Positions 43,014 to 61,053 of a stretch of DNA of 64,000 bases are shown here, piece by piece (position 1 is the first letter of the stretch; each line of letters starts with the position of its first letter). The stretch is from assembly GCA_963796685.1 (NCBI GenBank), contig CAWCMR010000025.1, positions 896,001 through 960,000 on the forward strand. Reading direction: 5' to 3'. The DNA is from an uncultured delta proteobacterium (GTDB taxonomy: Bacteria; Myxococcota_A; Polyangia; Fen-1088). The notes under the pieces are model-generated. The model was not told the origin of the DNA, ran no database searches, and saw only the letters and a program-made list of their open reading frames with translations. A program made the position numbers and the translations under genes.

Positions 43014-44081
43014 ATGAAATCGTACAACATCGCGCTGATTCCTGGAGACGGCACCGGACCCGAGGTTCTTGCCGAGGGCGTGAAGGTCATCGACGCGGCT
43101 TGCGCCAAGCACGGCGTGAAGCTGAATTACACCAGCTTCGATTTCGGCGGCGAGCGCTACAAGCGTACCGGCGAGATCCTGCCCGACAGCGCGCTCGAAG
43201 AGTTCAAGAAGTTCGATGCCATGTTCCTCGGCGCCATCGGTCACCCCGACGTCAAGCCCGGCATCCTCGAGGTCGGCATCCTGCTCAAGACCCGCTTCGC
43301 CCTCGACCAGTACATCAACCTGCGCCCGGTCAAGCTGTACCCCAACGTCGAGACGCCCCTCAAGGACAAGGGCCCCGAGCACATCGACTTCGTGGTCGTG
43401 CGCGAAAACACCGGCGGCATCTACACCGGCATCGGCGGCGTCACCCACAAGGGCACCCCGCTGGAGAACACCGTCCAGGTCATGACCTACTCGCGCCCCG
43501 TGGTCGAGCGCTGCGTGAAGTACGCCTACGAGCTGACCCGCAAGCGCAACAGCAAGAAGAAGATGCTGACCCTCGTCCACAAGTGCAACGTCCTGACCCA
43601 CGCCGGCGACTTGTGGGTGCGCGTGCACAAGGAGATCGGCGACAAGCTCTATCCCGAGATCAAGCAGGACTACAACCACGTCGACGCCTGCACCATGTGG
43701 TTCGTCAAGCAGCCCGAGTACTACGACGTCATCGTCACCGAAAACCTCTTCGGCGACATCATCACCGACCTCGCCGCCATCATCCAAGGCGGCCTCGGCA
43801 TCGCCGCCGGCGGCAACATCAATCCCGAGGGCGTCTCCATGTTCGAGCCCATGGGCGGCAGCGCCCCCAAGTACACCGGCAAGAACGTCATCAACCCGCT
43901 CGCCACCATCTGCGCCGGCGGCATGATGATGGACACCCTCGGCGAGCCCGCCATCGCCAAGGCCGTCGACCAAGCCGTCCACGACGCCCTGGCCTCGGGC
44001 AAGATCAAGAGCCTCTCCGCCGGCAAGATGGGCATGGGCACCCGCGAGGTCGGGGATTTCATCGCCAAGCTGGTGAGCTAG
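43014..44081 (+). CDS. leuB: 3-isopropylmalate dehydrogenase
   Basis: 'PGDGTGPEV', 'NLRPVK', 'VRENT', 'NLFGDIITD', 'MFEPMGGSAP'. Substrate specificity within the ICDH/IPMDH family is inferred. Confidence 0.88.
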   Translation: MKSYNIALIPGDGTGPEVLAEGVKVIDAACAKHGVKLNYTSFDFGGERYKRTGEILPDSALEEFKKFDAMFLGAIGHPDVKPGILEVGILLKTRFALDQYINLRPVKLYPNVETPLKDKGPEHIDFVVVRENTGGIYTGIGGVTHKGTPLENTVQVMTYSRPVVERCVKYAYELTRKRNSKKKMLTLVHKCNVLTHAGDLWVRVHKEIGDKLYPEIKQDYNHVDACTMWFVKQPEYYDVIVTENLFGDIITDLAAIIQGGLGIAAGGNINPEGVSMFEPMGGSAPKYTGKNVINPLATICAGGMMMDTLGEPAIAKAVDQAVHDALASGKIKSLSAGKMGMGTREVGDFIAKLVS

Positions 44082-44214
44082 CAGGCCAAGCAACTTTCCT
44101 GAGCCGCGTGCCGACAACGCCACCATGTGGAGGCAGCAGCACCCGCACAGCCCGCAAGACGGCCAGCGAATTCCACGCTGCTCTCAAACAGAAGGCCAAG
44201 CGGCGTGGGCTGGT

Positions 44215-46485
44215 TCAGAACGCAAGCCGGACTCTGTTCTTCACCTGCAGGTCTTGTGTTAGCCAGCCGGACGTTTGCATCTGGGTCACGATTTCGTCGT
44301 AGACGGGTGCGGTTCCCTCTGGGTCAGCGATCGTGATAATGAGCGCCATCCGCTGCGGATTCCTGGTCTGGAAGCCACTTCGATGCTGCAGGGAAATATG
44401 GAGCCTCCACGTGTCGCCTTGGATCCCTCTCTTGATCGATCTCCGGTAGACCTTTACGGGCGACCACTTGAATCCGTGCTCGAGTAAGTGATGTTCAAAG
44501 AGCATGTTCACGTCTTCCGGCTCCGGCGGTATCTGCCGCTTATGGTGGCGCTTGCCATCCTTACCGAGATCGTAGGTCCCGAGCGAGACCTCGACATTGG
44601 ACCGACAGTATTCAGCGCCGGCAGCACCTTCGCAGGGTGGGTCATACGCGAGGGTCATCGAGAACTCTCCGCGAACCTTGCCCTTCTTGTCCCGCAGGCT
44701 CGCCGGAATGGGAAACCCTACCTTCTCGAACTCAAGACCTGAAAGCAGGTCGGGTTCGAAGATGAGGGTGGCGGCGGATCTCACGCACGAGAGGACTTCG
44801 GCGACGCCACCAGGCACGCCGAAACCGCGATACTTCATGTCGACCGCAGTCAGCGTACCCTTGGACACCAGTGCGGAATGGATCAGGAGCGCCTTGACCA
44901 GATTCGGCGAAGGTGCGGCTCTTCCGGTTAGTTCGGCGTCGACGGTCGCGTACAGGGACGTCACCAGCGGCGTTGCGAAGCTTGTCCCGATGCTCTCGGC
45001 TACATCGCCGTTCGCATCGAGTGAGAGAACGCCGGTCTGCACACAGCCGAGTCCCGCATCGCAATTCCCGCCATAGTGGGACAGATCCGGTTTTGGCAGG
45101 TACACCGGACCTGGGCCGCGGCGGGAAAAGGGAGACGGTTCCCCGGATCGTACCTTGGAATTCGGGCGGTCGATGTGTGCGACCGAAGCAACGGTGATGG
45201 CGTGAACCGAATCGGCGGGAGCGCAAATGCGGTCGGCCTCTCCGAGATCCTCCGCAGGCCACCCTCGGAGGGGCGGGGTCACATAGTTTCCCGCGGAGAC
45301 GACAAATCGCACGCCATGCTTCGACTGGATCTCGTCGAGCGCCATCGCGAAGTCCGAAAAGGAGTCGTTCTGGCACAACCCCGCCACGCTGTTCACGGAC
45401 AGGTTCCAAACCCGCACCTGCGGGTACTTCGGCACGACCTCTTCTATGATCGTCAGGAGCTGGTCTTCCGAAATGCCGCCCTTCGGAACGGCCACCACGT
45501 CGACGATCCGACAAGATCCGTCGGGGAAGCCTGGGTCACTCTGATTCAGCAGACGACCATGCACGAGCAGCCCAGCAACGAAACTTCCGTGCTCGAGATC
45601 CTGCTCGGATGGATGCACCTCGATCTCATGCGACACAATCCAAGGTGCAAGGAGAGGATCGTGAGCGTTCACCCCGCTGTCAATCAGCCCAACGACCGGA
45701 TAGTCTCTTCCCGGCTCGGGGGCGGGGAAGTCGGATGTGCGAGCAGCGCGGACCCGAGTAGCCGAAGTACGAACCGATTTGTAGATCGGAAATGTGGAGA
45801 CGCTTTGCGTGCCTACGAACCGGGCAAGCCTTCGGATGGCGTCAGGTCCCGCTGGGCCGATGCGGTAGATACGCAGCCCCTCTGCGTAGCGGACCGGTTC
45901 AGGCGAGGCGAGCTGGAGATCCTCCACTTCGGCAAGGAACGCCTTTTCGATTCTTTCGTCGATAGCAGGACTGCTATGCCGAAAGAGCCTCAGCTTGAGA
46001 GGCGAGGGGGTGCGGACCACACGAGCGGTAAGCTCGTCGACGGTTTCGGGCGCCGTGGCCGTGTCCGCTTCATGAGGCAAGATTTGCGCGATTGTGGAGA
46101 TGTCTGCCTGACCCGCCTTCGTGCTGTCCGCACCTATCCTCGCAATCAGTTCATCGATCCGACCGGGACGAAGGCTGATGAGCAACTCCCCGAGATGACC
46201 AACTCCTATGACTGGGCAGGTGTTGTGGAAAAGCTTGGCGGGACGATGGGATTTCGCCAGCGCCTCCCGTTTGAGGACCACCCGACCGACGGCGGGCAGA
46301 CTTGTCTTGTCGGCTACGTGCAATCGGCTGGCAGCATCAGCCAGTTGTCCCGATAGCCTTGCTCGAACTTCTGAAGTGACGGGTCCGAACATCTTGCGTC
46401 CGCCACCGCCTCCCTCGGGACGGAACCAGTCTTCGTTCCTACTCAGGACGACTTTGATGGGTAGTCTCCGTTCGGTCGTAGGCAT
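44215..46485 (-). CDS. S8 subtilisin-like serine protease, IetS-like
   Basis: Catalytic triad motifs 'LIDSG', 'EHGSFVAG', 'GTSFATP'; oxyanion 'SAGN'; no signal peptide; 3 nt downstream of an AAA ATPase. Confidence 0.9.
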   Translation of the reverse strand: MPTTERRLPIKVVLSRNEDWFRPEGGGGGRKMFGPVTSEVRARLSGQLADAASRLHVADKTSLPAVGRVVLKREALAKSHRPAKLFHNTCPVIGVGHLGELLISLRPGRIDELIARIGADSTKAGQADISTIAQILPHEADTATAPETVDELTARVVRTPSPLKLRLFRHSSPAIDERIEKAFLAEVEDLQLASPEPVRYAEGLRIYRIGPAGPDAIRRLARFVGTQSVSTFPIYKSVRTSATRVRAARTSDFPAPEPGRDYPVVGLIDSGVNAHDPLLAPWIVSHEIEVHPSEQDLEHGSFVAGLLVHGRLLNQSDPGFPDGSCRIVDVVAVPKGGISEDQLLTIIEEVVPKYPQVRVWNLSVNSVAGLCQNDSFSDFAMALDEIQSKHGVRFVVSAGNYVTPPLRGWPAEDLGEADRICAPADSVHAITVASVAHIDRPNSKVRSGEPSPFSRRGPGPVYLPKPDLSHYGGNCDAGLGCVQTGVLSLDANGDVAESIGTSFATPLVTSLYATVDAELTGRAAPSPNLVKALLIHSALVSKGTLTAVDMKYRGFGVPGGVAEVLSCVRSAATLIFEPDLLSGLEFEKVGFPIPASLRDKKGKVRGEFSMTLAYDPPCEGAAGAEYCRSNVEVSLGTYDLGKDGKRHHKRQIPPEPEDVNMLFEHHLLEHGFKWSPVKVYRRSIKRGIQGDTWRLHISLQHRSGFQTRNPQRMALIITIADPEGTAPVYDEIVTQMQTSGWLTQDLQVKNRVRLAF

Positions 46486-46488
46486 TCT

Positions 46489-47625
46489 CTATTCCTCCCG
46501 CAGAAGCTTTGATAGCCGACCCAGGGAAACGCCGAAAACCTCCGATAGACGGCGGTAGGTGAAGAAGTCGGGCGCGAGGCGCCTGGCGGCGGCGACTCTT
46601 GCCTCAAGCGAAACCGAATCCTTCATAAGATCTGGCAATCGATGATTCAAGATCCGGCGAAGCACTTCGGCGGTATCGACGCGAGTCAAGTCGGACAAGA
46701 TCGCACGACGTTTGCTGTCTTCGGCGACCTGTCGGATGTCAGATCCGCTCAGCGTCTCGGAGACGGCCGCAAAGACTCGAATCTCATCGTCCTGTGCGAA
46801 GTCTCCGCAGAAGCGCTGGAACATTGCACGCCGAGCTTCCGGCCCCGGAAGACCGATCTGCAGGCGGAAAGCGAATCTGCGCCAGATCGCCGGATCCAAG
46901 AGGTGTTCGTGGTTGGTGGCCGCCAGAAGAACGGTTTTCGATTCGAGCGCATCGATATTCTGAAGAAGGCTGACCACGACCCGTTTCAGCTCCCCCAACT
47001 CGTTCTTGTCGTCGCGCGCCTTCGCCAGCGCATCGAACTCATCGAGGAACAGTACGCACGGCCGCGCGGTTGCGTGATCGAAAAGAGTGCGGAGGTTCTT
47101 GGCGGTGCTGCCCAGGAAGGAAGAAATCAGTGAGTCCGACCGTGCCGTAAGCAGCGGCAAACCCAGTTGCGACGCCACGTACTTTGCTAGTTCGGTCTTG
47201 CCACAGCCGGGCGGGCCGAAGAGAAGCATCGAAGGTGACACGCCGACACCCTGGCTAACCAGGCGATCGGCCCCGAGGACAAACCGAACGAACTCATGAA
47301 CGGCTGCCGTGACCTCCGGCGCTACGAATACCACCGCGTCTCCCGATGCGAAAAGTTGCTCATCCGCTAGCGCGAGCCGCGACTCCTGATCGACGGGGAT
47401 TCCCGGTGCTGCGATCGAACGGCTGAGCTCAAGCATTCTCGTCTTCGAGCTTTGGAGGGTCCTCTGAAGACGATCGGCGATGGTCTTGTGACCCTCGGCT
47501 GCGAGCTTGGAGGCCAGCAACTCCGTGTAAGATGCCACCTTCTCCCGATCGGCGTTGACCGCACCTTCAACGATCTTGAGCAGTTCGAGAACGTGAGGAA
47601 GCTCCTTATGAACAACTGAAGGCAT
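46489..47625 (-). CDS. AAA+ ATPase, IetA-like
   Basis: Walker A 'GPPGCGKT', Walker B 'LFLDEFD', 'GELKRVVVSLLQ', 'LDPAIWRRF'; start at 47625 is inferred. Confidence 0.9.
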   Translation of the reverse strand: MPSVVHKELPHVLELLKIVEGAVNADREKVASYTELLASKLAAEGHKTIADRLQRTLQSSKTRMLELSRSIAAPGIPVDQESRLALADEQLFASGDAVVFVAPEVTAAVHEFVRFVLGADRLVSQGVGVSPSMLLFGPPGCGKTELAKYVASQLGLPLLTARSDSLISSFLGSTAKNLRTLFDHATARPCVLFLDEFDALAKARDDKNELGELKRVVVSLLQNIDALESKTVLLAATNHEHLLDPAIWRRFAFRLQIGLPGPEARRAMFQRFCGDFAQDDEIRVFAAVSETLSGSDIRQVAEDSKRRAILSDLTRVDTAEVLRRILNHRLPDLMKDSVSLEARVAAARRLAPDFFTYRRLSEVFGVSLGRLSKLLREE

Positions 47626-47748
47626 GATGTGAACATTATGCCTATGTACGTGAACGCTATCAAGATATCGTGAACGAATGCCGCACAGCTGAGCCTCCAC
47701 GCGTCGTGAAAGTCGAGAACCCGAGCGCGTCGACCCTCGTCGTTCGAG

Positions 47749-47959
47749 GCCGATCCCTTCGGCCGGGGTGAGCGAGCGATTTGGTGACGCCGACCGATCC
47801 GTTCGCTCACCCTGACCGATAGGTTCGGTTGCATTTACCGATAGGTTCGTTCGTCCCGACCGATCGGTTCGCCCACCCCGACCGATCGGTTCGGTGCCGC
47901 TAACCGATGGTTTCGGTGGCGCCAACCGCTCGATTCGGTCCTGGGAACCTATCCTCAAG
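47749..47959. repeat. Iteron-like array with exact 22-bp period, core ACCGAT(C/A)GGTTCG
   Basis: Cores start at 47793, 47815, 47837, 47859, 47881, 47903 and 47925; degenerate in-phase units at 47749, 47771 and 47947. Confidence 0.85.
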
Positions 47960-48069
47960 GTCACCGTCACCGGTCCCAGTGCTTGCCCCACTCCGAAGGT
48001 CGACCCAGGGTGATCGATCCACATCGCCCTGGGGACCTCGTGCGAGGCACCTGCGGTTTGACTGTCCGG

Positions 48070-48552
48070 CTATCTCGCCGCAGCTGCCTGGGGCGCGGGG
48101 GCCGGGGCGGGGGGCCTCGGGCCGCGCGCGAAGAAGTCGAGCAGCGGCTTGAACATGACCAGGATTTCCGGGTCGTGCTTGCCCTGCGCCTTCACCTGAT
48201 CGTTGGTCTTGCGAATCTGTTCCCACGCCTCGGCGTCGAAGAGCAGATTGGCTTGCTTGAGCTTGTTCAAGACGACGTCGAGATCGAGGATCACCTGGTC
48301 GATACCCTCGGCGCGTTTCCCCAAGGCTCGCAGCGACGCCGGCGTTACGCCAGCCGCCGGTGCGAACCTTGCGCCCGACTTCTCGATCGCGTCGGCCGTC
48401 GCATCACAGATGAGCCCAATTCCCCGCGGCGTCTTGGCGATGCGACGAACCTCATCGGGGCTCATATTTCCAGCCTCGGGTGGCGGCGCGAATTCGTCCG
48501 CAATTGAAACCGTTACTGTTCCATGTCGAAGATCAACCATTGGTCCCTCCAT
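48070..48552 (-). CDS. Hypothetical helical protein (160 aa)
   Basis: Clean ORF with genome-like codon usage, divergent from the methyltransferase gene. Confidence 0.7.
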   Translation of the reverse strand: MEGPMVDLRHGTVTVSIADEFAPPPEAGNMSPDEVRRIAKTPRGIGLICDATADAIEKSGARFAPAAGVTPASLRALGKRAEGIDQVILDLDVVLNKLKQANLLFDAEAWEQIRKTNDQVKAQGKHDPEILVMFKPLLDFFARGPRPPAPAPAPQAAAAR

Positions 48553-48656
48553 CTATGTCCTGGTTTCGCTTGGTCCGCGGGCCACCACATCTCCCGGCGG
48601 GCGGCATGAACGCGAGGTCACACGACGCACCCGGTTCGGGTTATCCTGCGACGGCA

Positions 48657-51600
48657 ATGCCCGCCGAGGTTCGTCTGTCGCCAAAGGATCGCCGTACTGT
48701 CCTTGAGCAGCTTTCGCGAGAGCGCCTCGGCGAGCTGAGCACGCGCTTCGAGCTGGACGTCGCGGACCGTCGGTCGACCGACTCTCACATTGATGCGATC
48801 GTGCGCAAGCGCTCGCTGGACTTCCGCGCCGTCCTGGAAGTTCTGCGGCGCGAGGAGCTGCAGGCCGCCTGCGAGGCGCTGGGGCTTGACCGGGGCGGGC
48901 GGGAGAAGGCCGCGCTGATTGGGCGGATTCTCGGCGAAGGGGCCGCGCCAACGGAGGCGACGCCTTCCCCGTCGAGCAGCGAGCCTTCGCCAGTCAGCGC
49001 GCAGAACGAGCGAGGGTTGAAGTCGGCGCTGCGCCGGTTCGTGCTCGACCTGGCCGGTGGGCTGCGCGGGCGGGACGCTGCCACGACGTTCACCTCGCGC
49101 TTGCTTCGCTGCTTCGGCTGGCCCGAGGGGGCACCGCCCGAGGTCACCCTACCGACGTCGCTCGCGGTGGTGGAGAATGGACGGCGCTCGACGCGCGAGG
49201 TGGCGCTGTTCTGGAAGGACCGGCGCGTCCTGGTCGAGGTGGTCAAGCACGACGTGATGCTCGACTTTGCCTGGAAGGACTTGCTGCGCGTCTGCCTGCA
49301 GGTCGATCCGGTGCCCGCAGTATGTGGTGCTGACCAACCAGCGCGACCTCCAGCTCTATGACCTGGGCCGCGACCGCGAGGAGCCCAGGCTTTCGATCGC
49401 GCTCGAAGATCTGCCCAAGTACAGCGAGGCCTTTCCGTTCCTCTCGCCCACCTGGCACCCCGGAACCACGCCGAGGATCATCAACGTCTCGAAGGTGTCG
49501 CGCGAGGTCGCCGAGCTGGTCGCGCGCCTGTACCGCAGCCTGAAAGAGCAGCACCCCAAGCAAGAGCGCGAGGTCGTGCAGTTCACGCTCCAGTGCATCC
49601 TGACCATGTTCGCCGAGGACATTCGCCTGCTGCCCCAGGAGTACTTCACCTCGCTGCTTTACGATGGCGCGCGCAGCGGCGACGTCGAGAAGCGGTTGCG
49701 CGACCTGTTCCGGCTGATGGGCACGCGCGACGTGCCCGGCCAGCGCGCGGTGCCCTTCTTCAACGGGGGGCTGTTCACGCGTCCCGTGACCCTCCCGCTC
49801 GGCGAGGCGCAGCTGGCGGCGCTGATCAAGGCCTCGGAGGCCAACTGGACCTACGTCGACCCGCACATCTTCGGCAGCGTCTTCCAGGGCATCATGAGCG
49901 ACGCCGAACGCCACCAGAGCGGCGCGCACTACACCGCCCACGAGGACATCATGCGCGTGGTGGGGCCCACCATCGTCGAGCCGTGGCGCCAGCGCATTCG
50001 CGAGGCCAAGTCGCTCGAGCCGAGCTGCTGGAGGTGCGCACGGCTCTGCTCAAGTTTCGCGTGCTGGACCCCGCGTGCGGCAGCGGCAACTTCCTGTACG
50101 TTGCCTTCCGCGAGCTGTACCGCCTGGACACCGAGCTGCTGGCCCGCATCCGCGAGTTCCCGTCCACCCAGGCCGAGGGCCGGGCGAAGGTGACCTGGGG
50201 AGTGGGGATCCAGACCATCGAACTTCTTCGGCATCGACATCAACCCCTTCGCCGTCGAGCTGGCCAAGGTGACGCTGAACATCGCGAAGAAGATCGCCTT
50301 CGACGAGCGCAGCGAGCTGGCGGCGCGATCTCGTCGGCCAGATGGAGATGGACGTCGATCCGTCGCTGCCGCTCGACAACCTCGACAAGAACATCGTCTG
50401 CGCGGACGCGCTGTTCACGGACTGGCCGGAGGTGGAGGCGATTGTCGGCAATCCGCCGAATCCTGGGAGACCGTAAAATTCGTGGCGAGCTAGGCGCGGA
50501 CTACATTCGCCGGCTTCAGGAGACGTCGGGATTGGATGGCGTCGTCGATCTCTCTTGCTACTGGTTTCGCCGTGCGCACGATCGCCTGCCAGACGGGCGC
50601 CAGGGCGGGGCTCGTCGGCACCAGTGGAATCCGCGTAGGGAAGGCGCGCGAGGCCTCGCTCGACTACATCGTCGCAAACAGCGGTACCATCACGAATGCG
50701 GTGTCATCGCGCCCCTGGCCCGGTGAGGCCGCCCTCGACGTCTCGATGGTCAACTGGGTGAATGGATTCGCCGATGGTCCGCATCAGCTCATCATCGAGG
50801 ACGAGGTCTTCCTGGTCGCGCGCATTCCAACGCATCTTCAGCTCCACGCCGACGTCAGCGGGACCAGGGACCTTGCGGCCAATGTCACCGGTGCAATGGT
50901 CGGCATAACATTTGCGACCGATGAGTTCACGATCCCACCCACGTCGGATCTTCTTCGTAACGGGGACTTGAAAAGGCGTGGTGTGGTGAAGCCCCTCGCG
51001 ACGGGTGGTGGCATGCTCAAAGGCAGCCTCGCGGTCAACCCGGAATACGTCGTTTACCTTGGCGCTTGCAAGACACAGCCCGAAGCCGCGCAGGTCGGTG
51101 GCCCTGCATATGCCTATCTCGACAAACACCTGCGGCCACACGTGCTGTCAGTGGCTGGGCAGTATGAAGGATGGGATGCACGCTGGTGGCAGCCTTGGCG
51201 TCCACGCCCAGAATTCCTCAGCGTTGCGTCGAAGCTGAATCGGCTGATCATGTGTTCCAAGGTGCTTGGCCGCCCTGTCTTTGCTTTTCTGTCTTCCACG
51301 TTCGCGCCAAACGATACGATGCAAGTCTTTGCCTTCGACGACGACTACAGCTTCGGCATCGTTCAGTCATCGTTGCATTGGGAGTGGATCAAGGCTAAGG
51401 GCGGCAAGGTTCGGGCCGACAAGCGCTACACCAATGAGGTCTGGACTACCTTTCCCTGGCCACAGGAGCCAACCGAAGCCGAAGTCGCGGCCATCGCCAC
51501 CGCCGCGCGAAACCTTCGCCGGGCCCGCGACACGCTCATGAAGGAAAACTCCTGGTCACTGCGCGCGCTCTATCAAGCCGCCGAGATCCCTGGCCCGCAT

Positions 51601-51822
51601 CCGCTCAAGGACGCGCAAGCAGCTCTCGATGAAGCCGTTCAGCGGGCCTACGGGATGCCGGCAGACCAGGAGGCGACGGCGTTCCTGCTCGAGCTGAACC
51701 AGCTCGTGGCCGAGGACGAGGCGGAGGGCAGGAAGGTCCAAGGCCCCGGGGTGCCGAAGGGGCTCGATGCGCGCGACCCGCGCTGGACCAGCGACGATTG
51801 CATCGAGCCGCCCGGCTCGTGA
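48657..51822 (+). CDS. MmeI-like (Type IIL/IIG) DNA methyltransferase with TRD; several apparent frameshifts; nuclease motif degenerate
   Basis: 'PFFNGGLF', 'DPHIFGSVFQ', 'GAHYT', motif I 'VLDPACGSGNFL', 'FGIDINP', motif IV 'IVGNPP', C-terminal 'FGIVQSSLH...TFPWP'. Pieces lie in ORFs starting 48480, 49267, 49593, 50269 and 50536. Confidence 0.85.
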
Positions 51823-51832
51823 CGGGAGAAAC

Positions 51833-54800
51833 GTGGCCGAGTCAATCGATGTCCATCCGCTGCTGAGCAAGCTTTGGGACGACAAGAGGAACGGCGCCGC
51901 GGCGGCTGTCCAGGTGCGGAGCTTCCGCCCTGCGTGGTGGCGTTGCGAGCACGGGCATTCGTTCCAGCGCTCGCCGCGCAGCATGCTGAGCGACCCTGCA
52001 TGCCCGGGCTGCCAGCGCGGTCCGGGCACAAGCTCGATCGCCAAGGCGCGACCCGGCCTGGTGCCGCTGTGGCATGCCGAAAAGAACGGAAGCCTGTCGC
52101 CCAGCACCACCGATGTGGCATGCGCGCGGGGCCATCTGGTGGCGCTGCCCGCAGGGGCACGAGTTCCAGCGCTCGCCCCTGCTGATGTTGCGGGATGCAA
52201 GCTGCGCCGTCTGCACGGTCGCCACGACATCCCTGGCGGTGACCAACCCCGCCGTGGCGGCCGAGTGGCACCCGTCCCAGCAACGGCGAGGTCACGCCCG
52301 ACCAGGTTGCCCGCCGACCACGTCATGAACGCCTGGTGGCTGTGCCCCAAGGGCCACGAGTATCAGGCGACTGTCCGGTCGCGCGCCCGGGGCAACCGTA
52401 GCTGCCCGACCTGCTACGGCGGCTGGTCGCTTGAGAACCTCCGAGCCTTCGTCAAGTCGCTCGCTTTCGCATGCCGGCGCGTTCAACCCGAGCGAGCGAT
52501 TCGCCCTGGCGATGCAAGCGGGCGTGTTCGCGGACAAGGACTCGCGCCCCTTCGTCATGGCCATCTCCACGGGGCGCTTCCCGCGCGAGGAGCTGGAGAA
52601 GTTCGCCGAGGGCAAGCCGTCCCTGGTCGATGAATTTGCCGCTGACAAGGCGCTGACCCTCGAAATCGTCGACGGGCGGCAGCCCGCGAAAACCGCCACG
52701 CCGGTCGATCCCTACGCCCTGCCGGCAGCGCCCGAGCCCCTCGACGAAGGTGAGCGCGTCGATGTGGACGTCAGCCGCGAGGTTGACTCTGCGGCCGTCG
52801 CCACCGCCGCAGCGCGGCGCCGATGATGACATGCCGCTGGTCAAGACAGCGGACGCGCTCGGCGGCGCTCGACAGCGTCCTGGTGGCCAACGCCGATGCC
52901 GAGACGGTGAAGTTCCTGCTCGACAGCGCGAAGGCCAAGCTGTGGCGTCACGCCTACGTCGATGCCAAGGAGGCCCGCGAGCAAGCCGCTGGCTTCAAGG
53001 GCGACGTCTATTCGGGCCTCGTGCGCGACAGGTTTCTTGCCGAGTTCGACGAGGCCGACGCGCTGGCGCCGCCCGCGGGCTATGCCTTCCGTCCCACGCC
53101 CGACGCCCCGGTGACGCCACCGAATCTGATGCAGCGGCGGGTGGCGGTGTGCGTGCGCGCCGAACGCCGGTTCGGCAACTGGTCCGGGATGGGGGCGGGC
53201 AAGACCCTCAGCGCCATCATCGGCACGCGCGTCGTCGATGCCAGGCTGACGGTGATCTGCTGTCCCAATGCCGTGGTCGACAACTGGGAGCGCGAGATTG
53301 CGGGGGCATTTCCCGCCTCGGACGTGGCCAAGAAGACCTGGCACCCCGAGTGGAAGGATCCGCTCGGGACCACGCCGCGCTACCTGGTGCTCAACTACGA
53401 GCAGTTCCAGCAACCCAACTCAGAGGCGGAGCTGGTCGGGTTTCTCGATCGCAACGTCATCGACTTCGTCGTCGTCGACGAGATCCACTTCGCCAAGCAG
53501 CGCGAGGCCGGCGCGGAGATGTGCAAGCGCAAGCGACTGGTGCAGGGTCTTATCCTGGAGGCGGGCAAGAAGAACGGCGGATCTGTGCGTGCTCGGGATG
53601 TCGGGAACGCCGGTCATCAACACCCTGCAAGAGGGCAAGAGCCTGGTCGAGATGATCACCGGCCATCGCCACGACGATCTGGAAACGCGTGCCACGGTTC
53701 AGAACTGCATGCGGCTCTATCAGCGCCTGGTCACGCTCGGGACGCGCTGGAAGCCCGACTACAAGATCCAGCTCGACGGTCGACAAGAAGGAGATCGACT
53801 GCGAGCACGCCCTGGACGAGATCCGGGTCGTGGGTCGGGGGACGGTGCTTGAGCTAGAGCAGGTGCTGACCCGGCTGCGCCTACCGACCATCCTCGCGAA
53901 CCTTTCGCCCGGCGAGAAGGTCGTCATCTACACCCACTACGTGGACGGCATCGCGGGCACGCTGCGCGACGCGCATCCACACCGCAGGCTATCGTGTCGG
54001 GCATGCTGACCGGCGGGACCGACGACGTCGATCTCAAGGAGTTCCTGAAGCCCGACGGCAACATTGATGTCCTCATCGCCTCGAGTCGCATCGGCACGGG
54101 CGTCAACGGCCTGCAATACGTCTGCAACAAGCTGATCATCAACTCGCTGCCGTGGACGAACGCCGAGTACGAGCAGCTCATCGGGCGGCTGTACCGGCAG
54201 GGCAGCCGCTTTGACCAGGTGCGGGTCATCATCCCGGTGACCTTCGCGATGGTGAACGGTGAACGCTGGTCCTACTGCGAGTCGCAAGCTGCACCGGCTC
54301 GAGTACAAGAAATCGATCGCCGACGCCGCCGTCGACGGGGTCGTGCCCGAGGGCAACCTGCGCACGCCCGCGCAGGCGCAGCAGGACATCATGGATTGGC
54401 TGGCGCGGCTGGAGAGCGGCAAGATGAGCCGAGGTCGCAGCGGCCGGTCATCAAGATCCCGCTCTCGGGCGAGCCCAACGAAGTCGAGCGGCGGGTCGCG
54501 CGCTACGGCGACTTCTCGAAGATGAACAACCGTTGGTACGCGTCGGGCAGCGAGTCGACCCACGCCAGGCTGGCCAGCAACCCCGAGGAGTGGGCCCACT
54601 ACCACACGATGTACCGGCAGATTCGAGAGTCCTGGCCTGTGGTGCCCTACAAGGAGGAGATCCGCTGGCTGTCCGAGCGGGAGGGGCACGTCATCGGCGA
54701 CTTCGGGTGTGGCGAGGCGCTGATCGCGCGAAGCCGGCCAAAGACCGCCATCAGGTCCACAGCTTCGACCACGTGGCGGTGGGCGGCAGCGTGGTCGCCT

Positions 54801-55112
54801 GCGACATCGCGCACGTGCCGCTCGAAGACGAGCTCCCTGGACGTCGCGATCTTTTGCCTCTCGCTCATGGGCGCGAACTTCACGGACTACGTGCGCGAGG
54901 CGCATCGCTGCCTTCGCCTCGACGGCTGGCTACACATCTGGGAGCCTGCCAGCTACTTCGACGACGTCACGAAGTTCTGCTCGCAGCTCGGTCGCCTGGG
55001 CTTCGACGTGGTGGAACCGCAGACCGAGGGTGCCTTTGTCCGGATCTACGCTGCGCGGAATGCCAAGAAGGTGGATCCGACAATCGTCCTGCCATTCCGA
55101 GGGCATGGTTAG
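51833..55112 (+). CDS. Fusion of 3 Zn-ribbons (DUF4379-like), SF2/SNF2-type helicase and Rrp8/NML-like methyltransferase; about ten or more apparent frameshifts
   Basis: GTG at 51833 after GGGAG. Zn-ribbons WWRCEHGH..CPGC, WWRCPQGH..CAVC, WWLCPKGH..CPTC; helicase 'GMGAGKT', 'DEIH', 'SGT', 'QLIGRLYRQG'; MTase 'IGDFGCGEA', 'HSFDH', 'CDIAHVPLEDE', 'DVAIFCLSLMG'. Confidence 0.82.
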
Positions 55113-55309
55113 TTACCTCGCGCGGTCCGGTCTGCACTGCCTTCCACGCTGCCGTCCCGGAAGGTGCAAAGCGCGAACTGGATCGCATCTTGGATGCGAA
55201 GCTGGTGCTCCACGGCCCATCGCATGAGGGCCTCGAACAGCTTGCGATCGAGGTGCAGGCCGTCGAGCACGACGAAGCGGCCACACGAGGAGACCTTGGC
55301 GGGCATCAT
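55109..55309 (-). CDS. Small hypothetical protein
   Basis: 'MMPAKVSSCGRFVVLDGLHLDRKLFEALMRWAVEHQLRIQDAIQFAL'; convergent with the helicase gene, stop codons overlap. Confidence 0.4.
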   Translation of the reverse strand: MMPAKVSSCGRFVVLDGLHLDRKLFEALMRWAVEHQLRIQDAIQFALCTFRDGSVEGSADRTARGN

Positions 55310-55453
55310 GTCGGGATCTATCGGCAAAGCCCCTGCGATTGTTGCTTGGAATCGAAGATTGATGCCCGCCAGCCGCCCAGGTGATCACCTACTCGCGCCC
55401 CGTCATCGAATCGCGTGGGGAGCCGCCGAGCTTCGCTCGGCGCGTACCGTCGT

Positions 55454-55604
55454 GGGAAGGTTTGGAAACCCTCCCAGTTCCGCCACCGGGCCGAAGGCCC
55501 GGATCCTTCAGTCATGAAACGTGGCAGCCCCTCACCCGCCTCGCTGCGCTCGGCGACCTCTCCCCGCTTCGCGGGGCGAGGTGGTTTCAGGTCAGGGTTT
55601 CCAT
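55454..55604. repeat. ~150-bp palindromic module, second copy of 33323-33483
   Basis: Shared GG(G/A)TTTGG(G/A)AACCCTCC, CCGGGCC(C/G)AAGGCCCGGATCCTTC, GCCCCTCACC..CCTCTCCCCGC..GCGGGGCGAGGTGGTTTCAGGTCAGGGTT. Confidence 0.88.
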
Positions 55605-55613
55605 CTCCATGTC

Positions 55614-56182
55614 GCGTGAAGTACGCCTACGAGCTGACCCGCAAGCGCAACAGCAAGAAGAAGATGCTGACCCTCGTCCACAAGTGCAACGTCCTGACCC
55701 ACGCCGGCGACTTGTGGGTGCGCGTGCACAAGGAGATCGGCGACAAGCTCTATCCCGAGATCAAGCAGGACTACAACCACGTCGACGCCTGCACCATGTG
55801 GTTCGTCAAGCAGCCCGAGTACTACGACGTCATCGTCACCGAGAACCTCTTCGGCGACATCATCACCGACCTCGCCGCCATCATCCAAGGCGGCCTTGGC
55901 ATCGCCGCCGGCGGCAACATCAACCCCGAAGGCGTCTCCATGTTCGAGCCCATGGGCGGCAGCGCCCCCAAGTACACCGGCAAGAACGTCATCAACCCGC
56001 TCGCCACCATCTGCGCCGGCGGCATGATGATGGACACCCTCGGCGAGCCCGCCATCGCCAAGGCCGTCGACCAAGCCGTCCACGACGCCCTCGCCTCAGG
56101 CAAAATCAAGAGCCTCTCCGCCGGCAAGATGGGCATGGGCACCCGCGAGGTCGGGGACATGATCGCGAAGTTGGTGAGTTAG
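55614..56182 (+). pseudogene. leuB: Displaced 3' half of leuB (att-like direct repeat)
   Basis: 569 bp colinear with 43513-44081; about 13 substitutions, all synonymous except one F->M codon; no start codon. Confidence 0.95.
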
Positions 56183-56224
56183 CCTTTCGCCACGCTCCGC
56201 GCGGCCGCAGCAGCGGCCCAATTG

Positions 56225-56809: not shown

Positions 56810-57691
56810 CTAGGCGGTGGTCAGGCGCCACAGCTCGGCCAGGCGCTCGGGCGCGGTGGCCGCGCGGATGATCGCCGGGCCGCCCGTCATCTGGTACTCG
56901 CGCAGGTCGACGATGCGGGCGTAGTCCGAGTGGGCGTCCACCTGGAACTTGCGTTCGCGCAAGACTTGCTGTGCCTCGTGCGCGAGCGCGTGCCCGCAGC
57001 CGCCGTCACGGGCGAGGTAGAGGCAAGTCCATAACGCCATGCGGTTGGTCGTCCAGCCCATGGATTCCGGGTGGCGCCCCCACGAGACAAGCAAGATGCG
57101 CGACATGTCGTGCGGGTCGTAGAGCGCCCAGCAGACGTTGGCGATGAACGCGAGGTCCTCGCCGGTCGACAAGGAAAGCGTGCCGAGCAGTCGGCGCTGC
57201 AGATGGTCCTCCCACCAGCGCGACGCGAATCCTGTCGCCCCTCGCTTGAGGGTAAGCCCGAGCTGATGGGCCACCGCCACGAGCCCAGCATCGATGAGCC
57301 GGCGCTCGCGACGGAAGAAGCGGAAGACGAGGGCGACGAGACCGATGAAGCCGCCGACCTGCGCGATGAGGTTCCACGGCCGGTAATGCCGGGACAGCAT
57401 CCAATGGCTCCACGGCGATCGCTTGGGCCAGCTCAGCGCCCAATGTCCGCTGCTCACGCCGTAGGCGGTCCACTCCAGCCCCACCCAGAGCACGATGAAG
57501 ATGATGACGGCGTAGATGAACGCCGACTGGACCTCGAAGGCGCCCTCCACCACGCTGCCGACCGCCGACAGCCAGGACGGCATGCGCTTGACGGGATGGC
57601 GCCTGACGTGGACCACCCACGCGGTGAAGGCGATAGCGAAGCCCACCATGATGAGCACGCCGACAAGGAGCTGGATCTGGCTGCTGGTCAT
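56810..57691 (-). CDS. Hypothetical 3-TM membrane protein
   Basis: Hydrophobic segments; ATGA overlap with the upstream gene. Confidence 0.7.
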   Translation of the reverse strand: MTSSQIQLLVGVLIMVGFAIAFTAWVVHVRRHPVKRMPSWLSAVGSVVEGAFEVQSAFIYAVIIFIVLWVGLEWTAYGVSSGHWALSWPKRSPWSHWMLSRHYRPWNLIAQVGGFIGLVALVFRFFRRERRLIDAGLVAVAHQLGLTLKRGATGFASRWWEDHLQRRLLGTLSLSTGEDLAFIANVCWALYDPHDMSRILLVSWGRHPESMGWTTNRMALWTCLYLARDGGCGHALAHEAQQVLRERKFQVDAHSDYARIVDLREYQMTGGPAIIRAATAPERLAELWRLTTA

Positions 57692-58257
57692 GGGTCTTCG
57701 TTGGCGGGGGGAACCACGCCGTCCACCGCGAGACTCGCATCCCCGGTTTGGTCGCGTCGCGGAACCAGCGACGGCATGATGGTCGAGACGAGCTCGGCGG
57801 CCAGCTCGCGCTGCATCCAGGGCGGGACCTGGTCCGGGTTGTCGCAGTTGAGGCGAATCTGCTCGCCCATGAGACGTACCCGATCGTTGGCTTCGATCTT
57901 CACGTCACCGCTTCGCGCCTCGATGCTCGTCGCTGCGCCGACCAGGCGCACCTCCTCGGTGGCCTTGACCTCGAAGCTCTGACATTGCACGGCGAGCTGC
58001 TTGGGCGTGACGATCTGGATGTCGGCACTCTCGAACACCAGCTTGGGGCCGGCTTCGGTGAGAATGACGGTCAACTCCGCCTTCCCACTAGGGCTGACGA
58101 TGTCGATTCGCTCCTGACCCAGCGACAGGGAAAGCCGCACGGTCCGTCCGCTGCGGGGCGCGGTCAACGCCGAGCTGCTTGCGGCCATCGGCAGCGATCC
58201 CGTCGCGCTCACCGCCCTGCCCTTGTCATCTTCACCGTCTGCCAAGGCTCCTCCCAT
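57688..58257 (-). CDS. Hypothetical protein with VgrG/gp5-like beta repeats
   Basis: 'FEVKATEEVRLVG...IEARSGDVKIEANDRVRLMGEQIRLNC'; lies in the DUF2169 operon. Confidence 0.6.
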   Translation of the reverse strand: MGGALADGEDDKGRAVSATGSLPMAASSSALTAPRSGRTVRLSLSLGQERIDIVSPSGKAELTVILTEAGPKLVFESADIQIVTPKQLAVQCQSFEVKATEEVRLVGAATSIEARSGDVKIEANDRVRLMGEQIRLNCDNPDQVPPWMQRELAAELVSTIMPSLVPRRDQTGDASLAVDGVVPPANEDP

Positions 58258-58951
58258 CTATCCCGGCCACCGCACGGAATGCCGGACCTTCTCTTGCTGG
58301 GCTTCCGTCAGCGGACGGTCGGCCGCCCAGGTACCCGACCACAGCATGACCAGGCGGCTCTCGTCGGTGTTGACGAGGACGGTCTTGAGCGCCGGCTCGA
58401 GCTCCTTCGCGGCGCCGTAGGTTTTTGAGGAAGGGCACGAGCGGATCGGGATGGGTCTCTTCCGCCCAGATGTCCCGGCCGCCGTAGGCGCGATCGTAGG
58501 TCAGATCCATCGAGACGAACGGCTCGGGAGCGGTGAAACGAAGCTGCCCGTTGGCGAGGAGCTCGACCATGCGGTCGCCGATCACGCGGATCCGGCAAGC
58601 GCGCTTGCGCGCATCCTCGGCGGTGGTGATGGCGGTCAGGACCGCGACGCTGACCTCGGTCATGGGGCGCGGGCCGCCCGTCACGTAGGCCTTGCCCTGC
58701 ACGACGACGTCGGTGCCCGGCTTGCCGTTGCACATGAGGTCCGATTCGGCGCGCGGGGGCGCGCCGCCCCCCTGCCCCTTCTTGTCGTAGTAGAGCTCGT
58801 CGAACTGGAGCGGAACCTGCATCGACGCAATCTTGCAGTAGCCGGTGGGCAGGATGTCGTAGGTGCGCTTGGCCAGGATGTGAAGGACGTCGGCACCGGC
58901 GCCGTCATCGGTCCCGACCAGCATCGAAAGTAAGGGCTCTAGCTCGGCCAT
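58258..58951 (-). pseudogene. DUF2169 family protein, internally deleted and frameshifted
   Basis: 'AKRTYDI', 'ESDL...KPGTDVVVQGKAY', 'RVIGDR', 'YDRAYGG', then a jump at ~58422 to the C-terminal frame 'LKTVLVNTDESRLVMLWSG...RWPG*'. Confidence 0.72.
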
Positions 58952-58960
58952 CGTAGATTC

Positions 58961-60052
58961 CTACTCCGAACGAGACGCGCCGCCGCCACGGGGTGGGGTC
59001 GACCCGCTGCTGCCTCGTGGTTCGGCGTTCCCCTTTCCACCCTCCCCGCCCTCTCCTTCCCCGCCTTCACCCTCTTCACCTTCCTCGCCAAACTTCTCTT
59101 CGACCCAGTCGGTCCCCTTCTCGCCGCCCTCACCGGCCAGATCCACCGCCGGTTCCGTCAAGGGCGACGCCAGCTTCTCGATTCCCCGGTCGACGCCCTT
59201 GGCCGCAAGCCGCTCGACGCTCTTTTCGACCTGATGCTCGACGATGTCTTCCACCTTCTTCTCGACCTGCTTCGACATCTCCATCCCGACTTCGTTCGCC
59301 AGGCGATCCTCGACCGCATGGAGCGCCTTCTCCGTCAGTTTCTGCGTCAGACGACGGGTCAGCGGCTTGAGCGCCACACTGAGGATCTTCTCGGCGAGCT
59401 TCTCGAGCTTCTCCTTGGCCCACTTGAAACCGGGCACGTATTTGAAGAGGGACTCGAGCAGCTTGGACGCGACGGCATCGGCGATCGCGGCGACCAGGTT
59501 GCCGATGATGGCGGCGAACGTCATGCCCGCGAAGACCGTGCTCGGGACCTGGACGTTGAAGACGTTCGGCAGGATCTGAACACCCTTGACGTTCATCTTG
59601 GGCATGGGCTCGGAGCACATCGAGAAATTCGCGGCACCGACGCACATGCCTGGCGCGATGAAGAGGACCGCCGGGTTGGCGGCACCGTCCGGGAACTCCG
59701 CCTTGATCGAATACGGTCCCCAGACCGCCTTGGCTTGCCCGAATCCGATGACGATCGCCATCAGCCCGAGGTCGAGCGGCGGCGGCACCGCCGAGGGCAA
59801 GGGCGGCAGTCCCGTGGAAAGATGCGGGCGCAGGAACTTGCTGTCGTGGCCGCGCTTGATCAAGTTCCCGGTATGCGCGCTCACCGAAGGCGAGGGCTGG
59901 TCACCCAAGGGGATGTAGATGGGGCCGATCGAGATGCAGATCTCGTTGGGATTGGGCGCCGGCACTCCGAGGGGAGTCAGCCCGAGACAGATGTGCTTCT
60001 CCGTGCCCATGATCAGGCACAGTGGCTTCATCAACTGACATGGAATGGGCAT
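58961..60052 (-). CDS. Hypothetical protein, possible PAAR-like N-terminus plus helical and acidic C-terminus
   Basis: His/Cys/Pro-rich N-terminus ('EKHICLG', 'RGHDSKFLRPH'), amphipathic helices, E/G-rich tail; lies between two DUF2169 genes. Confidence 0.55.
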   Translation of the reverse strand: MPIPCQLMKPLCLIMGTEKHICLGLTPLGVPAPNPNEICISIGPIYIPLGDQPSPSVSAHTGNLIKRGHDSKFLRPHLSTGLPPLPSAVPPPLDLGLMAIVIGFGQAKAVWGPYSIKAEFPDGAANPAVLFIAPGMCVGAANFSMCSEPMPKMNVKGVQILPNVFNVQVPSTVFAGMTFAAIIGNLVAAIADAVASKLLESLFKYVPGFKWAKEKLEKLAEKILSVALKPLTRRLTQKLTEKALHAVEDRLANEVGMEMSKQVEKKVEDIVEHQVEKSVERLAAKGVDRGIEKLASPLTEPAVDLAGEGGEKGTDWVEEKFGEEGEEGEGGEGEGGEGGKGNAEPRGSSGSTPPRGGGASRSE

Positions 60053-60069
60053 GCTGAACGTCCTGGTCG

Positions 60070-61053
60070 TTACACGGCGGCAAGCTCGAGCACGGCCGAG
60101 CGCTTCTCCTTCGGCCGCAGTCCGTATTTGAAGCGTGCAATCCAAGTCATGACCACCAGCCGTTTGGGTACAATCACCCAGAGCCCGGCCACCTTCATCG
60201 GATACGTCCCACGACGACGGCCGACCTGGGTGCGGACGCTGGCCACGAGCGACGGCACCCGGAAGCGGAACGACTCGACGCCCAGGTCGATCTGCACCGG
60301 GTCGCCGGGCCTGATCTCCGGCAGCAGCAAGGGTGGCGGGGCGGCCGACTGGTGGACCTCGCGGCTCTTCTGACTGATCTCCTTCTCGTCGAGGGGCTGG
60401 CGCGAGCTGCGTGTCCGTTCGGCCACCCACTCGGCCAGTTGCCAGGCCTGGGCGTTGGTGACCGGGCCCCAGGTGGCGATGGGGGGCTGGTCGTTCCACT
60501 TGCGGATCAACCAGTCGGGCCGTTCCAGGTTGGGCAGCGGCTGCTCGGCGGCTTGCGCAGCCGAGAGATAGAAACCTTTGCCGGCGGGGTTCAAGGGATG
60601 CGGAAAGGCCATGCCCTCGTAGTCCGCGGTTCCCCCGAACGAGCGGGCAAGGCCGAGATCGAGCTCGCCGAGCAGCGCGGGTTGGCTGGCCACGAGCTCG
60701 TTGCCGCGCTTGACCCACCGACGGTCGCCGAAGACGAGCATGCGGTTCGTGAAGGATCCGACGGACAGCCTGACCTCGAGGTGGGGCACGGGCCGGCGGG
60801 ATTTCGCCGTTCCCACCACGACCAGCTCGGCCTGCGGGCGCAGTGGGTAGTCGTCCGCAGGAAACCGCCCCACCTCCGTCGTGAGGGCCTCGCCAAAGAC
60901 GGGCCATTGCTCCGCATGCAGCGGCAGCTCGCCCTGGTTCCCGTCGAGCAGAGCGTAAGTCTTGCGCGCCACCACCCACCCGCCGTTCAGGTCTTCGTGC
61001 AGGGCTCCGGTGAACAGCCGGGCCTGCAGGTCCGTATGGTTGGCAAGCTTCAT
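60070..61053 (-). CDS. DUF2169 family (T6SS adaptor) protein
   Basis: 'MKLANHT', 'VVARKTY', 'VFGDRRW', 'RSFGG', 'NPAGKGF', 'LPNLE', 'LVVMTW'. Confidence 0.85.
   Translation of the reverse strand: MKLANHTDLQARLFTGALHEDLNGGWVVARKTYALLDGNQGELPLHAEQWPVFGEALTTEVGRFPADDYPLRPQAELVVVGTAKSRRPVPHLEVRLSVGSFTNRMLVFGDRRWVKRGNELVASQPALLGELDLGLARSFGGTADYEGMAFPHPLNPAGKGFYLSAAQAAEQPLPNLERPDWLIRKWNDQPPIATWGPVTNAQAWQLAEWVAERTRSSRQPLDEKEISQKSREVHQSAAPPPLLLPEIRPGDPVQIDLGVESFRFRVPSLVASVRTQVGRRRGTYPMKVAGLWVIVPKRLVVMTWIARFKYGLRPKEKRSAVLELAAV

Follow-up and report, generated by a model that had tools for sequence, protein, structure and literature searches.

An Rrp8/nucleomethylin-type methyltransferase domain fused to a Snf2-type motor and paired with an MmeI-like gene in a bacterial conflict island

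What is a methyltransferase of the type that eukaryotes use on their ribosomal RNA (rRNA) doing in a bacterial genomic island? The question is raised by a locus from an uncultured delta proteobacterium (GenBank assembly GCA_963796685.1), lying in a stretch of 64,000 nucleotides of contig CAWCMR010000025.1 (positions 896,001 to 960,000, forward strand) that was analysed as a whole and is referred to as the window; positions below are those of the window unless another contig is named. A first-pass annotation, made from the sequence letters, had proposed that this DNA encodes a domain of the Rrp8/nucleomethylin (NML) family, the large-subunit rRNA N1-methyladenine (m1A) methyltransferases of eukaryotes. 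Our analysis agrees with that proposal and adds that the domain forms the C-terminal end of a 1086-residue protein with a conserved operon partner, and that the reading frames of both genes are broken many times in this assembly (Table 1). From sequence comparison we lean slightly towards reading the product as an ATP-driven, DNA-directed methyltransferase that is paired with a nuclease-less MmeI-like protein in a cassette resembling restriction-modification (RM), bacteriophage exclusion (BREX) or defence island system associated with restriction-modification (DISARM) loci.

The peptides quoted in the first-pass annotation are indeed present at that place, in both the list of open reading frames (ORFs) and the DNA, whereas the string into which they had been joined is not a single-frame reading. 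It is spliced from two frames, 'NPEEWAHYHTMYRQIRESWPVVP...VIGDFGCGEALIA' and 'SLDVAIFCLSLMGANFTDYVREAHRCLRLDGWLHIWE' lying in the frame of ORF 53994-55112 and 'VHSFDHVA...VVACDIAHVPLEDE' in that of ORF 54533-55384, with breaks at ~54729-54736 and at 54830. Translation of ORF 53994-55112 (+ strand) matched the Pfam family Methyltransf_8 with an E value of 1.4e-31 and 110.5 bits (curated cut-off 27 bits) over profile positions 13-202 of 219, and the out-of-frame middle piece (ORF 54533-55384, + strand) alone matched profile positions 88-121 (E 2.5e-6). An intact metagenome homologue of 1086 amino acids (aa), P0002, gave 162.5 bits (E 1.8e-47) with the same profile. The counter-case raised with the proposal, a best match to generic Methyltransf_11/25 domains, did not materialise, as Methyltransf_11 reached 22 bits (E 2.6e-4) in P0002. 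In a phmmer search of the PDB, 2zfu_A (human NML) was the sole match to the methyltransferase part (E 1e-32), with identity in 65 of 174 alignment columns (~37% by hand count; 33% in Foldseek); this structure was deposited as 'Cerebral protein 1', while its Foldseek title is the methyltransferase-like domain of nucleomethylin. Searches with the Planctomycete, jumbo-phage and giant-virus versions of the domain likewise matched no other structure. The AlphaFold2 model of P0002 has a mean pLDDT of 79.9, with the methyltransferase domain mostly at 83-96, and Foldseek comparison of this model with 2zfu_A/B, a check suggested in the first-pass annotation, matched the NML fold with E ~1e-16, a target TM of 0.88-0.89 and a root-mean-square deviation of 1.9-2.0 Å over 208-209 columns.

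The motifs shared with Rrp8/NML are YH..[FY]...WP..P, DFGCG, S/CFD, CD[IM]..VPL and FCLSLMG. All relatives compared (40/40 and 65/65) retain motif I (D-x-G-C-G) and the motif II aspartate, which the window has as well. In yeast Rrp8, mutation of the motif I glycine G209 is reported to abolish binding of S-adenosyl-L-methionine (SAM) (PMC3553958), and the motif I glycine here would be its equivalent by motif position. The nearest Atlas clusters that carry no helicase are those of eukaryotic Rrp8, at 0.97 and 0.95. These comparisons confirm, at the level of sequence and predicted fold, that the domain is specifically of the Rrp8/NML type and not a generic class-I methyltransferase, which is a statement of family membership and leaves orthology to Rrp8 as a separate matter. 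The methyltransferase also looks catalytically intact.

The gene that carries this domain starts with GTG at 51833; a GGGAGA precedes this codon, which lies 10 bases past the TGA that ends the upstream gene. A frame-following alignment of P0002 against 51833-55109 gave 989 identical residues out of 1086, with 14 frame changes and no in-frame stop. In P0002, the order of the modules is three DUF4379 zinc ribbons (E 1.3e-34; paired beta hairpins were modelled at residues 34-46, 101-113 and 165-179), a helical region, a superfamily 2 (SF2) ATPase and Methyltransf_8. The ATPase of P0002 is above the Pfam cut-off for Helicase_C and just below it for ResIII and SNF2-rel_dom (23.4 bits for the latter, cut-off 24.9); among 40 diverse relatives, SNF2-rel_dom was found in 26 at E <= 0.001, and ResIII and DEAD in 31. 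The ATPase residues G-x-G-K, D-E, Q and R..R (Walker A, Walker B and motif VI) are invariant in the 40 diverse sequences and in 65 relatives. Apart from the two NML chains, the matches listed by Foldseek were all SWI2/SNF2 proteins (PBAF, Mot1, Chd1, SMARCAD1, ISWI, INO80 and CSB), with a best E value of 5e-18 for the Snf2 remodellers, and no nuclease-like fold was apparent in the remaining regions of the P0002 model. Motifs and model together suggest that the motor is an intact-looking translocase of double-stranded DNA of the Snf2 type.

Whether such a protein is made at all in this organism depends on the nature of the frame breaks. Phase tracing of the G+C content at third codon positions (GC3) revealed that the coding frame switches many times across 49.2-55.1 kb. 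Fourteen breaks fall in the Snf2-methyltransferase gene (52127, 52281, 52309, 52463, 52815, 52861, 53573, 53778, 53974, 53999, 54285, 54440, 54736 and 54830) and six in the MmeI-like gene (~49314, 50016-50018, 50217, 50326, 50459 and 50592). One extra base accounts for 17 of the 20; two of the three two-base steps consist of two separate one-base insertions each, the third being that at 54440. Besides the step at 54440, this amounts to at least 21 single-base insertions and no demonstrated deletion, and neither gene has an in-frame stop in their ~6.5 kb. Contigs from run X1, a peat metagenome with a word share of 0.06, leave out single bases at 50016, 50018, 50217, 50325, 53574, 53973, 54729, 54734 and 54831; they derive from a different organism, a relative that is mostly 85-95% alike, and show extra bases only in comparison with that relative. 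At columns that are invariant in 32 intact homologues, the frame-followed protein differs uniquely at two, against 0-13 such changes in those homologues themselves. A Viterbi frame-switch scan identified the island as the sole such cluster on the 2.1-Mb contig, and comparable patches with up to 17 switches per 6 kb were found elsewhere in the assembly (C11:228000-238000, C11:284000-320000, C15:204000-214000 and C8:292000-298000). The patch on C11 breaks smpB, fuses rph and the adjacent Ham1-family gene into a single open frame and cuts an acyl-CoA dehydrogenase gene short, and that on C15 includes genes for a Type I-like N6_Mtase and a YhcG nuclease. A polyketide synthase as the cause of the C11 patch was rejected, as no ketosynthase was present there. 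The assembly seems to have local error-rich stretches.

It might be argued that both genes are genuine pseudogenes, a dead remnant in which many frameshifts have left nothing functional encoded, given that 20 breaks lie within 5.5 kb, that the cluster is unique on its contig and that decay of these genes does occur in nature, as in a related locus whose MmeI-like gene is split by kilobase-size insertions (L044). We regard this as quite improbable. Natural decay also yields deletions and nonsense changes, in contrast to the insertions recorded here; the count of unique changes at invariant columns is no higher than in intact homologues; and the like patches that break smpB, rph and the acyl-CoA dehydrogenase gene point to local consensus errors. 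The 20 frame breaks are most likely local consensus or assembly errors, because the spectrum is insertion-only, nonsense codons are absent, constraint shows no sign of being relaxed and similar patches affect essential genes. Both cassette genes are probably intact in the organism.

The second gene of the cassette, for which ATG 48606 or ATG 48657 may serve as the start codon, belongs to the MmeI family. Its pieces match, in order, Pfam MmeI_N, MmeI_hel, MmeI_Mtase, MmeI_TRD and MmeI_C, the PADLOC model REase_MTase_IIG is matched with E 2e-87 by a window piece and E 1.7e-219 by an intact homologue (L004), and the MmeI structure 5hr4 is matched with E 9e-43. As in MmeI and other Type IIL/IIG enzymes, the MmeI_N domain, a helical spacer, a gamma-class N6-adenine methylase, a target-recognition domain (TRD) and a C-terminal domain follow one another, and all 30 of 30 partners keep the SAM motif and N-P-P unchanged. 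Unlike MmeI, the partner carries an N-terminal extension of 160-200 aa, is always followed by the Snf2-methyltransferase gene and is without two of the residues (D70, E80 and K82) that we take to be those of the PD-ExK nuclease of MmeI, the printed alignment displaying D...ExK there. The column aligned to D70 is A, P, S or T and that aligned to K82 is A, V, T or I in all 30 partners, while the E80 column is mostly E or D, with A, Q or H in three. The partner therefore described by these columns looks like a methylase-only protein similar to PglX of BREX, although PglZ, BrxC and BrxL of that system are not in the island. Across loci, the N-terminal part of the partner is 62-88% identical, compared to 33-53% for the stretch leading into the target-recognition region, as expected with diversifying specificity.

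The association of the two genes was assessed in a locus scan with one genome per species, which yielded 60 loci (Polyangiaceae, Polyangia, Kofleriaceae, Nannocystaceae, Sorangium, other Myxococcota and three Planctomycetes), of which the 45 with at least 3.3 kb of upstream sequence were counted. Forty of these 45 have an MmeI-like gene on the upstream side. It is directly adjacent in 32, at gaps of -4 to 117 bases (27 loci by the ORF test, with gaps of -4 to 28 bases, and five more by tblastn), and 0.9-6 kb upstream in eight; the five loci that lack it are the three Planctomycetes and two partial matches. The genes found as spacers encode YhcG/DUF1016 (L015), RhuM (L055), ABC-3C CTD10 with DUF2326 (L008 and L037) and HTH_66 with DUF433 (L001), and genes of the YhcG/DUF1016, RhuM and ABC-3C kinds typically lodge within RM operons. 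In a related metagenome-assembled genome (MAG), the MmeI-like gene is in four pieces with gaps of ~1.3 and 2 kb (L044:1415-7986), which may reflect disruption by inserted elements. A complex prediction with the first 430 residues of the Snf2-methyltransferase protein and residues 30-500 of the partner gave a score of 0.31 (mark 0.32).

How widespread is the fusion protein itself? A word-indexed search of longer proteins returned 948 matches; among the best 120, all but four are of ~0.97-1.12 kaa with DUF4379, helicase and Methyltransf_8, and three are without DUF4379 (862-869 aa). An exhaustive profile-free scan of cluster representatives, with clusters built at 50% identity, yielded 2342 at E <= 1e-3, 1139 at <= 1e-10 and 165 at <= 1e-30, and 99 of the best 150 of the 2342 have at least 850 aa, the longest having 1802. 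In 40 spaced representatives of at least 850 aa, Methyltransf_8 was found in 40, Helicase_C in 39, DUF4379 in 15, INT_rpt in eight and Sigma70_r4 in three. By these profile matches the motor-methyltransferase core is constant, and the putative nucleic-acid-binding modules at the N-terminus vary. Babeliales, Flavobacteriaceae and Planctomycetota are among the named sources, the bacterial clades represented being Myxococcota, Planctomycetota, Bacteroidota, Dependentiae, Cyanobacteriota and Actinomycetota, and full-length copies annotated only as 'zinc-ribbon domain-containing protein' are carried by one Crinalium and two Rhodococcus plasmids. Within the phylum of the window, a strong full-length Methyltransf_8 match occurs in 4 of 401 sampled genomes, the other 243 matches in this sample being weak, partial generic-methylase cross-matches that also appear in controls such as E. 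coli; in Planctomycetota, the single strong match among 301 genomes is the query genome itself.

Mobile elements account for a further part of the family. About 25 IMG/VR contigs have helicase-plus-methyltransferase matches, and of five large contigs chosen from these, three carry Terminase_6N and none the VLTF3 or the capsid of nucleocytoplasmic large DNA viruses (NCLDV), a capsid search that matched nothing anywhere. The three terminase-bearing contigs are read as tailed jumbo phages. At one jumbo-phage locus, PHROGs recognised only 'DNA helicase' and HNH endonuclease among the neighbours, and a jumbo-phage copy had no match among 50,697 GenBank phage records. Two giant-virus MAG contigs (L099:3202-6576 and L096:3676-6624) encode proteins of 1124 and 982 aa with an N-terminal SF2 helicase, helicase-associated-type tandem repeats of ~60-70 residues and a C-terminal Rrp8-like domain. 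The best Atlas cluster, also the largest, has 1498 members, and of the phyla known for them Uroviricota (tailed phages) is the most frequent; another has 89 members from Nucleocytoviricota. The remark in the first-pass annotation that this domain is also fused to helicases in scattered bacteria and in some giant viruses is borne out by these records, which extend it to plasmids and jumbo-phage contigs, and the distribution is sporadic and linked to mobile elements.

Reasoning from the observed domain identities, intact motifs, conserved operon and island context, we infer a DNA rather than an RNA substrate, cooperation between the two proteins and a role in defence. In the mechanism we propose, the MmeI-like protein would read a DNA motif and mark the host's own DNA, and the Snf2-methyltransferase protein would be the ATP-driven effector loaded onto DNA, whose motor may move along or distort the duplex such that the methyltransferase modifies the bases thereby exposed; the cassette would then act as a nuclease-less module of the RM/BREX/DISARM kind. 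DNA is the favoured target on three grounds: the track along which Snf2 motors move is duplex DNA, the partner recognises DNA, and the N-terminal modules that vary between members belong to DNA-binding types. Precedents for DNA methylation gated by a motor are the DarB-type dyad and Dnmt5, both described below. Several points weigh against this proposal. The relatives of known activity, represented by yeast Rrp8, methylate rRNA and not DNA according to PMC3553958. No nuclease was recognised in either protein, which leaves the stopping of foreign DNA unexplained, and the case for loss of the MmeI nuclease draws on one pairwise MmeI alignment and on the presumed identity of its catalytic residues. 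Inspection of two plasmid copies, one from Crinalium and one from Rhodococcus, and of the fetched flanks of the ~25 IMG/VR contigs found no MmeI-like neighbour. The Planctomycete versions (1404-1802 aa) stand alone, three of their loci having housekeeping-looking neighbours, and for members without a partner, counter-defence or some different role would be no worse an account, DarB-like protection being the better fit for those in phages and plasmids. Finally, the frame breaks could be real and the cassette dead in this organism.

Counter-restriction is the alternative that the mobile copies bring to mind. Motor-coupled DNA methylation has a precedent in the dyad of SWI2/SNF2 ATPase and adenine methylase with DarB as its archetype, which, as set out in the main text of PMC5512222, combines a SAM methyltransferase and a SWI2/SNF2 ATPase in one polypeptide, occurs in phages, plasmids and conflict islands and follows the same logic of motor-coupled methylation. 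A DarB-like protein would travel by its motor along the element's own DNA and methylate it broadly, which would shield the island, plasmid or phage from restriction by the host, and the MmeI-like neighbour would then be an independent RM gene. Such a role accords with the frequency of the family in mobile elements, namely the ~25 IMG/VR contigs, with terminase in three of the five large ones and NCLDV markers in none, with the standalone plasmid copies, and with the Uroviricota-rich best Atlas cluster, behind which the next clusters (0.85, a lead only) are N6_Mtase-SNF2 fusions; the DarB-type dyad itself is described as antirestriction in cis (PMC5512222). We nevertheless think it unlikely, while granting it more weight than a mere formality. 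In the subfamily of the window, the near-constant MmeI-like partner (40 of 45 loci), at gaps of -4 to 28 bases in the 27 loci of the ORF test, argues for a joint function, and the copy in the window sits in a chromosomal island beside ietAS rather than in a phage or the leading region of a plasmid. In addition, the methylase of the dyad is EcoKI/TaqI-like, modifies N6 of adenine, lies N-terminal to the ATPase and is accompanied by LPD36 (PMC5512222), whereas the methylase here is of the Rrp8 type, lies C-terminal to the motor and is combined with DUF4379 ribbons, with no Pfam match to N6_Mtase in P0002. The word 'Rrp8' has no occurrence in the main text of the dyad-defining paper (PMC5512222). 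An m1A product, moreover, would harm rather than protect DNA.

The kinship with Rrp8 suggests RNA as a substrate instead, with the motor and the ribbons remodelling rRNA, tRNA or phage RNA while the domain installs m1A, which could be a housekeeping modification or a device for abortive infection or takeover. Yeast Rrp8 is the rRNA m1A645 methyltransferase, acting at N1 of the adenine (PMC3553958). The only solved relative of the DUF4379 module at P0002 residues 133-194 (window ~52230-52420) is mt-SAF33 (E 1.8e-4), a trypanosome mitoribosome assembly factor, and this likeness hints that the module can bind RNA, a further point against DNA as the target. The housekeeping-looking neighbours of the Planctomycete copies are in keeping with such a role. 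Human NML is also close to the bacterial fusions: in phmmer bits over ~215 residues, it scores 128 with the Planctomycete, 116 with the Polyangia, 105 with the jumbo-phage and 77 with the giant-virus version, compared to 116-286 for the bacterial and phage clades among themselves (116-145 for the most distant bacterial clades) and 61-95 for the giant-virus versions against the bacterial and phage clades. By these scores, the separation of human NML from the bacterial fusions is thus about that between the most distant bacterial clades, and smaller than that of the giant-virus versions; the distances fit a shared pool, from which the first-pass annotation suggested that Rrp8 may have been recruited, the direction of transfer not being given by them.

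We consider an RNA methyltransferase very unlikely all the same. The nearest folds of the motor are all Snf2 translocases of double-stranded DNA and not DEAD/DEAH RNA helicases, the neighbour in the operon combines a DNA methylase with a domain for recognising DNA targets, and a housekeeping rRNA enzyme would be expected in far more than 4/401 and 1/301 genomes. Bacterial rRNA, by the account in PMC3553958, is normally without m1A. The eukaryotic enzymes differ in build as well: Rrp8 is standalone and near-universal, and Rrp8/NML is a nucleolar protein whose N-terminus is non-catalytic, whereas the domain here is the C-terminal module of a sporadic zinc-ribbon-Snf2 fusion in a bacterial island.

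A bolder extension of the DNA-directed reading is restriction by methylation rather than cleavage. The partner would flag unmarked foreign DNA, on which the motor-driven Rrp8-type domain would install methyl groups on the Watson-Crick face, such as N1-methyladenine; the phage and plasmid copies would hit host DNA or serve counter-defence, and eukaryotic Rrp8/NML, for its part associated with rDNA chromatin too, would descend from this motor-coupled pool. We hold this to be a long shot. Were it true, the methyl groups would block replication and transcription of the invader, making alkylation damage a weapon.

Other systems share single features with the cassette of an ATP-driven methyltransferase and an MmeI-like partner that we favour. 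Besides Type IIG, class 1 DISARM holds the nearest named defence relatives of the two genes: the partner matches DrmMI in its TRD and C-terminus (E 1.1e-67), and the second ATPase lobe of the motor matches DrmD weakly (E 9e-8). The NCBIfam score for DrmD, however, is 33.7 bits where 610 would be needed, a methyltransferase domain is absent from DrmD, and none of DrmA, DrmB and DrmC is encoded in the island (44083-55613). Fungal Dnmt5 is likewise a SNF2 ATPase fused to a DNA methyltransferase, in which the SNF2 part is reported to gate DNA methylation via ATP hydrolysis independently of nucleosomes (bioRxiv 10.1101/2020.01.05.895227). Its methyltransferase is an unrelated C5-cytosine enzyme that works in eukaryotic epigenetic maintenance, and homology is claimed for the Snf2 core only. 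Neither PADLOC nor NCBIfam has a model for the motor-methyltransferase protein, which gave weak, partial matches to DrmD, BrxH and DpdE in its second ATPase lobe. A description of the architecture was not found in a literature search whose coverage excluded subscription journals and supplements, so that an earlier mention is possible.

The setting of the cassette is that of a compact island of 11.5 kb that holds four genes, ietS, ietA, the MmeI-like gene and the Snf2-methyltransferase gene, in line with the first-pass proposal of a conflict-system island. It is bounded by a 570-bp direct repeat (97.7% identity between the copies over 570 bases in blastn). The left copy belongs to an intact Iso_dh-family gene, with a Pfam match at 43026-44057 (G000:C25:939026-940057) over profile positions 1-346 and an ORF that ends at 44081, and the protein encoded by the right copy is 99.5% identical to the C-terminus of this gene's product over 188 aa. 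The repeat pair looks like the trace of an insertion into, or an exchange at, the 3' end of the Iso_dh gene. No tRNA gene was found in the window and no integrase was seen among the four genes of the island. The ietAS pair (44215-48024) has a G+C content of ~0.60, compared to ~0.65-0.68 around it, and both of its ORFs are unbroken, unlike those of the neighbouring cassette. Some 7 kb downstream of the island there is a third, short Iso_dh fragment (63524-63697; profile positions 202-259, E 1.3e-12), and the intervening region 56810-61090 (- strand) encodes a DUF2169 protein (58232-58951, E 1e-21) and has a long ORF whose C-terminal part is without a Pfam match. DUF2169 is often tied to type VI secretion.

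Table 1 Features of the island and its borders in the window
Feature	Position	Strand	Evidence
Left copy of 570-bp direct repeat; 3' end of intact Iso_dh-family gene	43513..44082	+	blastn
ietS, S8 subtilase of ietAS	44215..46485	-	PADLOC IetS E 4.6e-254, full length; Pfam Peptidase_S8 E 8.8e-26
ietA, AAA ATPase of ietAS	46489..48024	-	PADLOC IetA E 3.7e-132; Pfam AAA E 2.9e-31
MmeI-family (Type IIG/IIL-like) methylase/target-recognition gene	48606..51822	+	Pfam MmeI domains, PADLOC
Zinc-ribbon, Snf2-type ATPase and Rrp8-like methyltransferase gene	51833..55112	+	Frame-following alignment to P0002
Three tandem DUF4379 treble-clef zinc-ribbon modules	51833..52460	+	Pfam E 4.2e-22, window piece
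Snf2-type two-lobe ATPase core	53129..54243	+	ORF motifs GMGAGKT, DEIH, SGTPVINTL, TGVNGLQ, GRLYRQG
Methyltransf_8 (Rrp8/nucleomethylin-type) SAM methyltransferase domain	54507..55079	+	Pfam, phmmer, Foldseek; frame breaks ~54729-54736, 54830
Right copy of 570-bp direct repeat; orphan Iso_dh 3' fragment, right end of island	55614..56183	+	Pfam Iso_dh profile 167-348 only

Methyltransferases coupled to a motor recur in the conflicts between genomes and their parasites, and in the known cases the catalytic domain is a classical DNA adenine methylase. On the sequence comparisons presented here, the cassette appears to be a variant of these conflict-system enzymes, in which the Rrp8-type catalytic domain and the MmeI-type partner are new, and it represents a large, widespread family that carries the type of methyltransferase with which eukaryotes form m1A in rRNA. 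If the enzyme acts on DNA, it would bring new chemistry to restriction or anti-restriction, in a nuclease-less system of two genes that is small enough to dissect. The helicase fusions of bacteria, phages and giant viruses also provide outgroups for a phylogeny of Rrp8, making the origin of the eukaryotic enzyme testable.

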